DNA of 64,000 nucleotides from IMG/VR virus record IMGVR_UViG_2571042390_000001. One strand, given 5' to 3'. Both the position numbers and the translations under genes were made by a program. This stretch comes from a virus. Taxonomy: Duplodnaviria; Heunggongvirae; Uroviricota; Caudoviricetes. The notes beneath the pieces are model-generated. The model was given only the letters and a program-made list of their open reading frames with translations. It was not told where the DNA came from and did not search any database. Shown piece after piece: positions 14,964-55,560 of the stretch. Each line of letters begins with the position of its first letter. Position 1 is the stretch's first letter.

Positions 14964-15289
14964 AATGTATGATCTGCATCATCGACTGAAGTCATCCATT
15001 GCTGAAATTTTTAGTTGATCTTCCATGTTTTCAGGCTTATATTCATGCCGTCGTAGCAAATTCTGCGACCGGGTTTGACAGCCTGAATGTTAGTGCGGAC
15101 AACCGCAGATTTCCGATATTGCGGTATTTTTGTGTCCGTAAACCGCGTTACGCCCGAATTATGGTGGGGCGTGATGGGGAGGCTTCGGCCTGCTGGTTTC
15201 ACTAACGCCAGTCTGTCAACCCTGTCACGTCCTGCCACCTGTTTGACAGCGGGTGGCAGGTTGTTAAACCTGTTAGTGAGGCCGTAACT

Positions 15290-27296: not shown

Positions 27297-27872
27297 TAAT
27301 GCAAGAGCACGCTTTGGCACCGTGCAGGCCAAAGTTCAGCAGGTTTAGTGCGGAAAGTGGTTTCAGAGAGAGCACTTTGCGGAGTAAACGACAATACATG
27401 TTGAGCCACGGAAGGTCTTTTTAAGGTGTTCATTGATGATGGTCCGGCAGAGAGTAACGGTACATGCTGCATCTAATCATCAATGCACATCTTCAACATT
27501 AAGGAGGCATAGGGATTTTTGTGGCGGTTACCTTTTGCCCTGAGTCTCCTTAATGTTGCGGTAATGCACCTATGCGGATGTGGCCTTGCATTGTGTCTTG
27601 AAAGAATGGGGTAAGGCCGGGGATATCCCCAGGGGGAGGCACCCCCGCTGCAACGAACAGCCACAGACGGCAGTCGAGTGATGGAAACGTGTAAAGACTT
27701 TAAACCTCGTTACGGCTGGCGTGGCAAACGCGACAACCGAGACAGAGCGGTGACGGGCGGAGAGAGTGCCGCATCAAGAAAGAAGCCGACTTGTGATCCC
27801 TTTCAGCGGGCATTTGAAAGTGAATCCAGCTCAGGCAGTCGGCTTCTTTCTTGTGTGAGATGTAGCGTATTT

Positions 27873-27896
27873 GCCCATCTTCGGGTGGGCTTTTTT
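27873..27896 (+). terminator. Intrinsic terminator inside the ORF-poor region
   Basis: gcccatc-ttcg-ggtgggc followed by TTTTTT; preceded by a 16-bp-stem hairpin at 27767-27846. Confidence 0.55.
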
Positions 27897-28357
27897 AGGG
27901 TTTTCGTCATGGTTAGCGACTTTGCGGCGGTTTAGAAACTGACCATTAAAGTAAATGCAAACGATGATCTGATGATGGTAGCGGCCTAAGAAGCCAGACG
28001 CCACGGGGTATGAGTCGTCCCCCGTCAAAAAAATCGACCGCAGAGTGTCCCCGTCTGTGTATTAGGGAACGGGGAGGCATAACAGGCAAGGGCGCTGGTG
28101 TGATTAACCAGATGAATGAGAAGGGTCAGGTCTTTCTGGTCAGCGCCCTTACCTGTTGCGTCCTTCCCGCGTAACAGCCATTGCTTAATGGCATCCTGGG
28201 AGAACTTCTTGTAACGGGTATATCCCGTCATGCTGAAGGCGCTAATCACGCTGGAAGCCAGGGTTGTGCATCCCCTGTTACCGAATTGCAGCCAGGGCGC
28301 GGTGCGCCGAAAAGCATACGGAGGTGGAAGCCCTCGCCGGAGACGTACCCGGCAAGT

Positions 28358-28432
28358 GATGGTGTAGCTCAGCGGTAGAGCAGTTGGCTGTTAACCAACT
28401 GGTCGGTGGTTCGAATCCACCCACCATCGCCA
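28358..28432 (+). tRNA. tRNA-Asn (anticodon GTT)
   Basis: 75 nt with CCA; acceptor gatggtg/caccatc, T-arm ggtgg-ttcgaat-ccacc, anticodon loop ctGTTaa. Confidence 0.85.
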
Positions 28433-28437
28433 ATTTA

Positions 28438-28524
28438 GGGGAGTTAGTCCGTAGGGGTAGCGGGGTAGACTGTAAATCTACTGTCATTGCGACTCGGGTG
28501 GTTCGACTCCATCACTCCCCACCA
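28438..28524 (+). tRNA. tRNA-Tyr (anticodon GTA), type II with long variable arm
   Basis: 87 nt with CCA; acceptor ggggagt/actcccc, anticodon arm gtaga-ctGTAaa-tctac, variable arm gtcattgcgac, T-loop ttcgact. Confidence 0.7.
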
Positions 28525-28528
28525 AATT

Positions 28529-28604
28529 GCCGGTTTAGCTCAGTTGGTAGAGCAGTCGCTTTGTAAGCGAATGGTCAGCGGTTCGATCCCGTTAACCGGC
28601 ACCA
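28529..28604 (+). tRNA. tRNA-Thr (anticodon TGT)
   Basis: 76 nt with CCA; acceptor gccggtt/aaccggc, anticodon loop ttTGTaa, T-loop ttcgatc. Confidence 0.85.
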
Positions 28605-29058
28605 ACACAACAGGTAAGAGCATTTGTAGAGTTCGACTCTCTACCGTGGGCTTTTTCCCGCGATGCGAGCCATAAATGCTCTTACCGTTGTGATGAAGTG
28701 CAGCTCTTTGAAGCAACCAGAAGATAAGCATCTGGCTTCACAACATAAACCGCAGGAACGACCAATAAACGGTAGTCCGTATGGAGAACACCCCGTTGAG
28801 GAAGAGGTCTGGCCGGAACCGTAACCGGCACTACAACGTTGAGAACACTGGCGTAACGGGGTCATATCCCAATCTACGAATAAATGTTGCGTTGCAGCGT
28901 GACAACCAGTGTTCTCAACATTGTGGTGAATGCGCAGGCTGATGCGCGAAAGACATTGCAGCTATTGCGGAAAAGAGCTGTTCGGCGGGGCAATTAAACG
29001 CCCGTGAGAGTCTGAAATAACCGCAAGCCGGAGATCAGCACCGGTCGCCACAATAACG

Positions 29059-29145
29059 GGAGAGTAGGGAGCATGGTGCTCAAGCGGTCTTGAAAACCGT
29101 CCCATTGCGCAAGCGATGATGGTTCGATTCCATTACTCTCCGCCA
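29059..29145 (+). tRNA. tRNA-Ser (anticodon TGA), type II
   Basis: 87 nt with CCA; acceptor ggagagt/actctcc, anticodon arm gcggt-ctTGAaa-accgt, T-loop ttcgatt. Confidence 0.7.
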
Positions 29146-29436
29146 GTGCAACATTAAGGGTATTTGGCTAATTAAGCGAATGCCGGAAGCAGAACCGGAT
29201 CACCAAATGCGTACAGGCGTCATCGCCGCCCAGTCAGCCAAATGCTCTTACCATTGCGGTGAATGCGGCTAAGCGCACGCGGAACAGTTAAAACAGTAAA
29301 GGTGGTCTTTTTACTGGCGTAACGAGAATCCATAAGTGATCCGGCGTTAATTGTTAACTGGTTAACGTCACCGGGAGGCGCCCGGCACCGCAACCTAACA
29401 GCAATGGCGTTTTGTCTTAAAAGGTGGCTGCAAGTG

Positions 29437-29565
29437 ATGGATTTTTGGGCGTTTGCCGATAAAAACCCGGAGTGGACATTATTGTTTCTGCTGGTGGTTG
29501 CATACGGGGTAGAGCAAGCGGCAAAAGCCTTACGCGGTTCTGGCAAAAAGCGTAAGCGTAATTAA
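29437..29565 (+). CDS. Possible small membrane peptide (42 aa)
   Basis: RBS aaggtgg then ATG; MDFWAFADKNPEWTLLFLLVVAYGVEQAAKALRGSGKKRKRN; hydrophobic core with basic tail; sits between tRNA genes. Confidence 0.25.
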   Translation: MDFWAFADKNPEWTLLFLLVVAYGVEQAAKALRGSGKKRKRN

Positions 29566-29574
29566 CAGTAATCT

Positions 29575-29650
29575 GGCCCTTTAGCTCAGTGGTTAGAGCG
29601 GGCGACTCATAATCGCACGGTCACCGGTTCAAGTCCGGTAGGGGCCACCA
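29575..29650 (+). tRNA. tRNA with CAT anticodon (Met or lysidine-modified Ile)
   Basis: 76 nt with CCA; acceptor ggccctt/aggggcc, anticodon loop ctCATaa, T-arm accgg-ttcaagt-ccggt. Confidence 0.85.
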
Positions 29651-30102
29651 CATTTGGTTGTAACACGGCGTATGGCACATGCGTCGTTAGCGGTCTGGTG
29701 TAGCTGTTAGGTACCTTTTACTAACACTGCATGGGCACACCAGGTAGCCGGAATGTGCAAGCCCCGTTCATAGCGTCGGACTGCGGATTCACCATCCTGG
29801 CGATTCGGTGTGACAGCCGGAAGAGCACGGCGCACAACAGGAAAAGGCGTTTAATTAGCGTGAGCGCCGTTTCCGTTGTGGTAATTGCGGCTATGCGCTC
29901 GTGACGAAGCCATTTTCATTCACTACGTTCTGATAAGTGACGTCGCCAGGAGTGGCTAACCTGGCAGGTGGAGGCACCACCGCCACAACTCCTTTCAATT
30001 CATCATATAGCCGCTCAGGCTGTACCCCTTAATTAATACGAAGTTACGACATCACTACCGGTACTTCCGGGGGATAGTCGCGCGTGTAAAAAAGGAAACG
30101 TT

Positions 30103-54767: not shown

Positions 54768-55389
54768 AGTTGAATTGAAAAACTCTCCGATGTACATTCA
54801 CTACCGATTGGCACACCGGTCAACTTTTTGAGACAAACTGTTTAGTTTTTCGTATTATTGCCTCCGCCATACCTATGGCGGTGCAATATAGGTGGCTGAA
54901 AAGCCCCCGTTGACTCACGGTGTTCCAGCCTTTATTGCGCCGCCACCAGACCGTGGAACAGTCGATGGCGGCTCCGAAAGCAAGGAGTCACAACACTATG
55001 AACAACTACAGTCTTTTCCCATCACTCGTCTTCCACCACTCACGCGATAATCTGCATTCTTTGCTCGCGCCGGGGGTGTCAAAATGACTGTTCGCTACCT
55101 CAACTTTCAAATCAAGAACATTACTGGCGGTTGCTATGACTGGTTTGTCACTCTCGGAAAAGAAGTGATCACCGGGAAGCTGGATGAAGTGAAAGCTAAA
55201 GCAATGGCCTACGCCTGCAAGCAAGTCAGGAAGAAATCCGCCAAAGCATAAAATACTGACTGTTGCGCCCTGGCATTATCGTGGGGTATATTTCTACGGC
55301 ACCTTAGAAAAACGGGTGCCGGGATTGGAACCCCGGATAATGTCAAAGGCGACACAGACGCCGAACGCGTCTTTTTTTGTGTCATGCCA

Positions 55390-55560
55390 TCGCACAGCCA
55401 TACTTAGCGTTTAGCTCAGAGATCAATGGTAGTGCTGGCTGGGCTGCCGAAAGGCAGGCCGGTTCCCTTTGACGCCGGTAGTTCCAACCCAGTCAGTGCT
55501 ACCGCCATTGAGATTGGAACCTCACGCGGTAGCTCCTTAACTTAGTCAAAGGAGGCTGCC
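55390..55560 (+). ncRNA. Candidate c4-type antisense regulatory RNA locus; boundaries not defined
   Basis: ORF-free, hairpin-rich leader between operator and icd-like gene, where P1 places c4; no sequence match verified. Confidence 0.2.

Follow-up and report, generated by a model that had tools for sequence, protein, structure and literature searches.

STnc100 and PasD have been described in the literature as related, expressed, Hfq-associated small RNAs (sRNAs) of lambdoid and Stx prophages, which occur as discrete RNAs, are bound by Hfq (PasD2 also by CsrA) and pair with mRNAs. The stability of PasD is Hfq-dependent, CsrA ternary complexes contain PasD2 as their most abundant RNA, and the canonical position of STnc100 is downstream of stx2 in Stx phages. 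A second relevant system is the dicBF operon (ydfABC-dicF-dicB) of the Qin prophage in Escherichia coli K-12, in which a 190-nt DicF precursor owes its 5′ end to RNase III, and the 53-nt form arises through RNase E (bioRxiv 10.1101/2023.04.14.536235). Here we analyse repeated sequences in the tRNA region of a 64,000-nt stretch of viral DNA (IMG/VR record IMGVR_UViG_2571042390_000001; hereafter 'the window'), a phage-plasmid of the D6/P1 family with D6 as its closest named phage. The repeats are strands of two kinds of conserved, structured module, which we call H hairpins and E domains, and these modules have relatives in both of the systems above.

The reading that we favour, with moderate confidence, is that H and E are two families of structured RNA modules that punctuate an operon of ~3 kb on the + strand and are processed after transcription. 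The corresponding part of P1 and P7 is the C1-repressed ban operon, headed by a 'dicF-like region'.

The repeats are paired strands of two modules

A sequence-only reading of the window had drawn attention to a repeated unit of ~30 bp and to inverted repeats in the tRNA trailers, and both are real. The sequence AAATGCTCTTACC occurs exactly three times in the 64 kb, at 28674-28686 and 29240-29252 on the + strand and as its reverse complement at 28613-25, whereas the expected count, from 100 shuffles, is zero. The longer unit CCRTTGYGGTGAATGCG recurs with at most two mismatches at 28918, 29251 and 29873, and a fourth copy, at 28687, is more diverged; the copy at 28674 fits the consensus over only ~24 nt (88%). 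The inverted partner of AAATGCTCTTACC does exist, although it had been placed 3 nt away, at 28610-28622: the segment 28613-25 forms a perfect inverted repeat of 13 bp with 28674-86, and the two enclose a T-arm-like hairpin, GTAGAG-TTCGACT-CTCTAC, at 28626-44. An inverted repeat reported as 18 bp long is also present, but its second arm is displaced by 4-5 nt from the position given for it (28901-28918); 28829-51 pairs with 28906-28 (23 nt, 91%) around a perfect 14-bp core (28838-51 with 28906-19). Both of these hairpins are far more stable than shuffled sequences (z = -5.1 and -6.1).

The ~30-bp unit likewise recurs, but it is not one element. In the P1 family, an H hairpin stands ahead of every E domain, and the 3′ arm of H abuts or overlaps the 5′ strand of E, so that the repeated unit is the junction of two elements, consisting of the 3′ arm of H (AAATGCTCTTACC) followed by the 5′ strand of E (RTTGYGGTGAAT). 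The 3′ partner strand of each unit, 60-140 nt downstream, had gone unnoticed, as had the kinship to STnc100/PasD and to the spacer between dicF and dicB. The extent that had been assigned to the repeats, 28610-29893, is too short, with further copies at 27494-27654 and 28077-28161.

There are five E domains in the window, each directly 3′ of an H hairpin, and all lie on the tRNA strand within 27.5-30.0 kb. The repeat RTTGYGGTG is the 5′ strand of a closing stem, whose 3′ strand, CACCRCAAY, is found 60-140 nt downstream, right after a terminal hairpin. When 18 E copies were each folded alone without constraints, they gave a single architecture: a closing stem of 8-10 bp is followed by a junction of 3 nt, by the small hairpin P2, by up to three hairpins (at least one) that vary, and by a terminal hairpin lying directly against the closing stem. 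The E domain is also marked by a GAAU junction. Domain E0 (27555-27654) has the closing stem GTTGCGGT/GCTGCAAC and the terminal hairpin GGGGG-AGGCA-CCCCC. Domain A (28687-28744) is a short form, with closing stem GTTGTGA/TCACAAC and terminal hairpin CCAGA-AGATAAGCA-TCTGG. Domain B (28920-29054) is closed by ATTGTGGTG/CGCCACAAT, and contains the P2 hairpin GCGCA-GGCTGA-TGCGC and the terminal hairpin CCGG-AGATCAGCA-CCGG. Domain C (29253-29394) has the closing stem TTGCGGTG/CACCGCAA and the terminal hairpin CCGGG-AGGCG-CCCGG, and in domain D (29875-29989) these are GTTGTGGT/GCCACAAC and GGTGG-AGGCA-CCACC.

The pairing in the E domain is conserved while its sequence changes. In the closing stem, 97.6% of cells are paired and six of nine pairs show two-sided changes, which none of 500 shuffles reached. 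The stems of the terminal hairpins vary in a compensatory way (CCGGG/CCCGG, CCTGG/CCAGG, GGTGG/CCACC, GGGGG/CCCCC, GTCGG/CCGAC and CCAGA/TCTGG); this covariation was read from single folds, as automatic alignments gave 64% paired because the loop lengths differ. The B element of RCS47 illustrates the pattern, since its interior is 97.7% identical to that of B in the window, while its closing stem has two compensatory pairs and one change from G.U to A.U. Unpaired bases are also conserved across distant contexts: those of the GAAU junction, of a CU-R-W-GCG motif in P2, and of two loops, AGGCA and AGAUNAGCA.

The H hairpins, of which the window has six, are confined to the same 27.5-30.0 kb and the same strand, and consist of a 13-bp basal stem with a variable, often Y-shaped apex. 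H0 (27494-27558) has a 15-bp stem, CAACATTAAGGAGGC/GTCTCCTTAATGTTG, with further predicted pairs and a 35-nt apex, and scores 54 bits with our H model, R3, on the + strand versus 16.8 on the - strand. Hx (28077-28161), upstream of the tRNA cluster, has 17-nt arms, ACAGGCAAGGGCGCTG and CAGCGCCCTTACCTGT. In H1 (28606-28692; 68.9 bits), CACAAC-A-GGTAAGAGCATTT pairs with AAATGCTCTTACC-GTTGTG (13 + 6 bp), and the apex consists of the T-arm-like hairpin and a second hairpin. H2 (28829-28928; 75.7 bits) extends its 14-bp core by 8 bp and carries two apical hairpins. H3 (29155-29250) pairs TAAGGGTATTTGGCT with AGCCAAATGCTCTTA over 15 bp that include G.U pairs, has a weak 3-bp extension and a 66-nt apex, and scores 50 bits on the + strand versus 11.9 on the other. 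H4 (29834-29880; 46.2 bits) is short, with CACAAC-A-GGAAAAGGCG pairing with CGCCGTTTCC-GTTGTG (~13 + 6 bp). In H1, H2 and H4, CACAAC upstream of the hairpin can thus pair with GTTGTG downstream of it (a CAAC/GTTG extension), which brings the stem to ~19-23 bp. We considered an obligatory switch between this extension and the closing stem of E, and rejected it: GTTGTG can pair either way, but the minimum-free-energy fold uses the upstream CACAAC only in H1 with A and in H2 with B.

Seventeen distinct H copies align without gaps once they are in register. In their 13-bp stem, 94.6% of cells are paired and nine of 13 pairs show two-sided changes, a level reached by none of 500 shuffles, in an alignment whose 5′ arms were placed so as to pair as fully as possible, a procedure biased towards the structure. 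For example, five of the 13 stem pairs differ between H1 and H2, and all five still pair. Model R3 also recovered a sixth copy, Hx, which was not in its training set (29.6 bits, E-value 3.6e-6), and all copies score more highly on the + strand than on the - strand. The apex is not conserved: the two hairpins of H1 in the window are replaced by other sequences in P1 and P7, and H4 has an apex of only 15 nt. Among the cells of the stems, G.U combinations outnumber A.C combinations by 29 to 7, which points to an RNA of the tRNA strand.

H and E do not behave as dispersed palindromes of the REP, BIME, ERIC or MITE kind, which are found in both orientations genome-wide: in the 64 kb, both modules are confined to a single strand of a single region. 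The arms of different H hairpins are in part complementary to one another (28613-28626 with 29239-29252, 14 of 14; 28145-28175 with 28591-28621, 74% over 31 nt), so long-range helices could bracket blocks of tRNAs, as the processing stems of rRNA operons do.

The E domain resembles STnc100

On the basis of sequence and predicted fold, we assign the E domain to the STnc100/PasD family of prophage sRNAs, with the PasD side compared by description, not by sequence. STnc100 and E have in common a closing stem, a GGUGAAU junction, the small P2 hairpin, a middle part that varies and, beside the 3′ closing strand, the terminal hairpin CCGGG-AGGCA-CCCGG. We scanned Rfam both at gathering thresholds and permissively, with E-values up to 10. 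The permissive scan matched STnc100 (RF02076) to element C only, at 29255-29392, with 39.1 bits (E-value 2.6e-6), over positions 31-147 of a model 206 positions long. The gathering score of this model, 47, was reached by no element in the window or in eight P1-like loci. At gathering thresholds, only tRNAs were found in the region. Even at E-values up to 10 there was no match to a ribozyme, riboswitch, DicF, rtT or Y-RNA-like family, and weak matches to miRNA, tmRNA and STnc240 models were judged to be noise.

Model R1 finds exactly five E copies in the 64 kb, all on the + strand, with 55.2 bits for E0, 28.9 bits for A (E-value 2e-6), 92.7 bits for B and 63.8 bits for D. To avoid circularity, a further model, R2, drew solely on copies of lambdoid STnc100 and on one element each from Klebsiella michiganensis and Pantoea. 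Its top four matches in the whole window are C (69.4 bits, E-value 1.6e-12), E0 (26.8 bits, 8e-4), D (22.2 bits, 7e-3) and B (13 bits, 0.54).

Two other functions were considered for the E domain and rejected. A hammerhead-like CUGAUG...GAAA in B lies within the P2 loop, lacks conservation among the other copies and has no Rfam match. The binding of PasD2 to CsrA raised the idea of a CsrA sponge, but GGA occurs 16 times per kb in E versus 14 per kb in the window, and lies at the ends of stems, not in loops.

Relatives of both modules at the dicF-dicB locus

Both modules are present in the E. coli K-12 MG1655 prophage Qin, whose locus we refer to as L260. An E domain occupies the spacer between dicF and dicB (L260 1953-2084, corresponding to about 1,649,452-1,649,583 of NC_000913.3), where it is unannotated in RefSeq. 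It scores 64.8 bits with R1 (E-value 1e-18), has an interior nearly identical to that of element C and a closing stem of ~18 bp, and ends 25 nt upstream of the dicB start codon. In the single-copy prophages that we examined (L167 and L161), the E domain likewise lies between dicF and dicB.

Upstream of dicF, an H hairpin (L260 1673-1758) aligns end to end with R3 (20.2 bits, E-value 1e-5). The stretch between this H and DicF has no detectable E domain (1.2 bits). Counting 190 nt back from the 3′ end of DicF places the RNase III cut at about L260 1746, within the 3′ arm of H (1739-1751), a position that is set by fragment length and may be off by a few nucleotides. H is thus homologous to the hairpin at an experimentally mapped RNase III site, with the position of that site derived from the length of the fragment. 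With its extensions, the stem of H also approaches two helical turns of double strand, as is characteristic of RNase III hairpins of the dicBF type. It is mainly because the Qin H spans the deduced cut of the DicF precursor, by homology and fragment length, that we read H as a putative RNase III processing stem. The suggestion that the repeats were duplicated spacer modules or RNA processing signals was therefore essentially right: there are two repeated structured modules with compensatory changes, and a homologue of one of them spans the likely RNase III site in Qin. The 'dicF-like region' of P1 (L001 1002-1103; window 27806-27907) aligns with a structured stretch upstream of dicF (L260 1750-1880), not with DicF itself.

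These observations bear on an alternative in which the structure is generic, and merely shields a long untranslated transcript from Rho-dependent termination or decay, with no specific processing sites or functional RNAs. It would fit a densely folded region of ~3 kb that is nearly free of open reading frames (ORFs), and the free variation of E middles and H apices. However, generic shielding does not account for the conserved unpaired motifs of E (the junction, the P2 motif and the two loops), for an H homologue at the probable RNase III site of Qin, or for relatives of E that, according to the literature, accumulate as discrete RNAs. We consider this alternative unlikely.

The array is a mosaic

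Comparison with other P1-like phages, which the sequence-only reading had proposed as a check, revealed relatives of E in P1, D6, P7, Ro157c2, RCS47, SJ46, CMS-2020a and a Klebsiella phage-plasmid. In a scan of viral contigs, most prophages had one E domain, and P1-like contigs had three to five. A prophage on a Pantoea megaplasmid and an IncF plasmid of Salmonella also carry pairs of H and E, and H and E together with the tRNA block occur in unrelated Klebsiella phage-plasmids. More than 1000 plasmids share some of the region (coverage 5% to 100%), and 28606-29400 is 100% identical to the E. coli plasmid NZ_CP117014.1. At every locus examined, the E matches share the strand of the adjacent tRNA or annotated genes. 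A scan of 185,579 genomes (596 Gb) with an 18-nt pattern of the junction gave chance matches from unrelated phyla and was uninformative, because the pattern is too short for 596 Gb.

In a lambdoid plasmid-prophage of Klebsiella michiganensis (L018 1896-2141) and the Pantoea megaplasmid prophage (L019 1935-2145), E lies early in an operon, after a CI-like repressor gene. This pL-type position contrasts with the late region in Stx phages. The element upstream of E is an H hairpin in Pantoea, and a short A-like element in Klebsiella.

In the window, the order of elements is H0-E0, a terminator, Hx, the tRNA genes Asn, Tyr and Thr, H1-A, H2-B, Ser, H3-C, tciC, Ile2 and H4-D. Across 12 genomes, the array is a combinatorial mosaic, in which E variants of 58, 102, 128, 135 and 146 nt and tRNAs (Asn or Arg, Tyr and Ser) appear in differing orders. 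When genomes are compared, homology stops at the conserved E and H ends, and the middles of E are swapped. The tRNA-Ser gene starts 2-4 nt past the end of the closing stem of five different E variants (eight genomes, nine records), and the CACAAC of H1 lies within 1 nt of the 3′ end of tRNA-Thr; from these spacings, tRNA blocks are bracketed by H hairpins.

This mosaic, together with the many partial copies on plasmids and the spread to unrelated Klebsiella phage-plasmids, would also be expected if the modules acted as DNA. According to this alternative, the junctions (…CTTACC-GTTGTGGTGAAT… and …CACAAC-A-GGTAAG…) are short homologies for the recombinational shuffling, duplication and deletion of cassettes of tRNA and spacer, and the hairpins are a by-product. 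However, compensatory changes preserve pairing in stems of differing sequence, the excess of G.U over A.C indicates one RNA strand, all copies are in operon orientation, and conservation extends to single copies, without a repeat partner, in lambdoid prophages, K-12 and Pantoea. We thus regard a DNA-level role as quite unlikely. Given the covariation, the strand bias and these conserved single copies, the shuffling is better seen as a consequence of repeated junctions than as their function.

The modules are neither tRNA remnants nor coding sequence

It had also been suggested that the repeats are remnants of further tRNA genes. The T-arm-like hairpin in the apex of H1, with its TTCGACT loop, invites this idea, particularly as a relative retains the stem by two compensatory changes and H1 of P1 has AGGG-TTCGAAT-CCCT beside its 3′ arm. 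However, ARAGORN and the Rfam tRNA model, with E-values up to 10, report only five tRNA genes. There is no T arm in H1 of P7 or Ro157c2, nor in H0, H2, H3 or H4, and the conserved stems at the base of H and around E have no counterpart in tRNAs. A single apical T-arm-like hairpin leaves the suggestion unsupported, and we regard decayed tRNA genes as a highly improbable origin.

Between 27122 and 30103, the single credible ORF encodes a 42-amino-acid homologue of TciC (MDFWAFADKNP...; 29437-29565, + strand), which leaves ~3 kb nearly ORF-free. Proteins encoded on the opposite strand, namely the plp and upl annotated in P1 and RCS47 over H1, A, H2 and B2, are scarcely credible as an explanation. 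In the window, the plp frame is interrupted by a stop and by a frameshift; P7 has a frameshift in it, Ro157c2 a broken and rearranged version, SJ46 a truncated one and CMS-2020a only fragments. The C-terminus of plp is the reverse complement of tRNA-Thr, and upl is confined to genomes with the B2 variant, being absent, save for a 10-amino-acid fragment, from the window, D6, SJ46 and P7. On these grounds the region is not coding, and plp and upl of P1 (L001 1683-2252; window 28573-29150), which are antisense to the H and E modules, are probably annotation artefacts.

A possible processing scheme

We propose that the array of H and E would be transcribed together with the tRNAs as one transcript. 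RNase III would cut the stems of H, as homology to the DicF precursor site suggests, and RNase P and RNase E would cut at the ends of the tRNAs. These cuts would release the tRNAs, compact E RNAs, and mRNAs (tciA and tciC, or dicB in Qin) with E at their 5′ ends as a structured leader. The E domain could act in trans, as an sRNA like STnc100/PasD, or could serve as a 5′ leader for tciA and dicB, both of which start ~25-50 nt past an E domain.

Several observations weigh against parts of this reading. To the favourable placing of the H arms and the approximate cut site in Qin, noted above, must be added that R2 backs neither B, whose E-value of 0.54 is marginal, nor A, which it does not detect; the evidence for A is its R1 score and its architecture. 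Folded singly, E domains are not unusually stable (z = -2.1, -1.1 and +0.3). None of the five E copies in the window has the 3′ single-stranded tail and Rho-independent terminator that canonical STnc100 copies both have. The window copies also sit behind H, which canonical STnc100 lacks, and are five in number and interleaved with tRNA genes. Finally, a strong intrinsic terminator lies at 27873-27896 on the + strand, at the end of the stretch that is annotated in P1 as the 'dicF-like region'. Since this is between E0 and the tRNAs, a single transcript would require read-through or an unseen promoter.

A scan for promoters gave one promoter-like site only, at 27157-85. In a test for intrinsic terminators, defined as a G+C-rich hairpin with a run of U, the site at 27873-96 alone qualifies, and it is outside H and E; H4 is a weak match. 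Terminator sites in the region are not more numerous than in shuffles, and we discarded the idea that H or E act as terminators.

A broader version of the scheme, which we offer tentatively and hold to be doubtful in its full form, is that temperate enterobacterial phages have in H plus E a portable 'punctuation cassette' of RNA, made up of an RNase III hairpin and an STnc100/PasD-type domain. With such cassettes, operons of tRNAs, sRNAs (DicF, STnc100/PasD) and small toxic genes (dicB, tciA) would be assembled and their parts freed post-transcriptionally. P1-family phage-plasmids would then make five paralogous E RNAs on induction, which would bind Hfq and/or CsrA and reprogram the host, and the cassettes would also drive the shuffling of tRNA genes.

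Other features of the region

All five tRNA genes are on the + strand. Three of them span 28358-28604 (tRNA-Asn, 28358-28432; tRNA-Tyr, 28438-28524; tRNA-Thr, 28529-28604), and the others are tRNA-Ser(UGA) at 29059-29145, which starts 4 nt past the end of domain B, and a CAT-anticodon tRNA at 29575-29650, annotated in P1 as tRNA-Ile2. The top Rfam model for tRNA-Ser(UGA) is tRNA-Sec, with 43.5 bits, under the gathering score, and for its counterpart in the D6 record tRNAscan-SE gave no amino acid; we therefore take it to be an atypical long-arm tRNA.

In comparison with D6, P7 and P1, tciA and tciB are absent from the window (29398-29435), so that element C is directly upstream of the TciC homologue. 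The spacing from element C to tRNA-Ile2 is identical, at 178 nt, in the E. coli plasmid pRHB16-C11_5. On the 3′ side of the CAT-anticodon tRNA, ~185 nt (29651-29833) are highly conserved in P1, P7, SJ46, Ro157c2 and D6, and also occur on a Salmonella IncF plasmid, there without the tRNA. This stretch has no Rfam match, and its predicted fold shows little covariation.

Elsewhere in the window are two loci for C4 antisense RNA, at 15037-15242 and 55299-55509. One is beside a c4-a1b1 target element and the other beside an isrK-like RNA. This suggests that the 64-kb stretch holds two immunity regions of the immI type.

Comparison with known systems

The stable species 1 and 2 RNAs of phage T4 and the tyrT-linked rtT repeats of E. 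coli are precedents for structured RNAs, other than tRNAs themselves, that share a transcript with tRNAs and are freed by tRNA-processing enzymes. We found no relationship of these to the modules of the window in sequence or in Rfam (rtT gave no match), so the likeness is one of analogy only. A second analogy is with rRNA operons and T7 early mRNAs, in which RNase III stems ~20 bp long bracket functional RNAs. Unlike these stems, H is a local hairpin with a variable apex, is coupled to E, and has a cleavage that is predicted only.

The closer comparisons are with STnc100 and dicBF. STnc100 and the E domains of the window both lie within long phage operons, and differ in the terminal loop of B and A, which is AGAUNAGCA. 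In the dicBF operon, an H hairpin precedes dicF and a C-type E domain lies in the dicF-dicB spacer, the same two modules that recur in the window. In dicBF, non-coding RNAs are excised from a repressor-controlled polycistronic prophage transcript; the same is proposed for the window, and in P1 the operon is headed by the 'dicF-like region'. Qin differs from the window in that it has one H, one detectable E and no tRNA genes, and the window differs from Qin in that Rfam recognises no DicF there.

The comparison connects three subjects that had been studied apart from one another: the tRNA region of phage-plasmids of the P1 type, the STnc100/PasD sRNAs of Stx and enteropathogenic E. coli prophages, and the DicF/DicB locus of K-12. 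It places an unannotated conserved RNA domain ahead of dicB in the best-studied bacterium, gives the mosaic tRNA sets seen in more than 1000 phage-plasmids a basis in sequence, and offers a testable rule for how such operons may be cut, namely by RNase III at H hairpins. The modules are a variant form of known prophage RNAs, not leftover tRNA genes and not a new kind of system.

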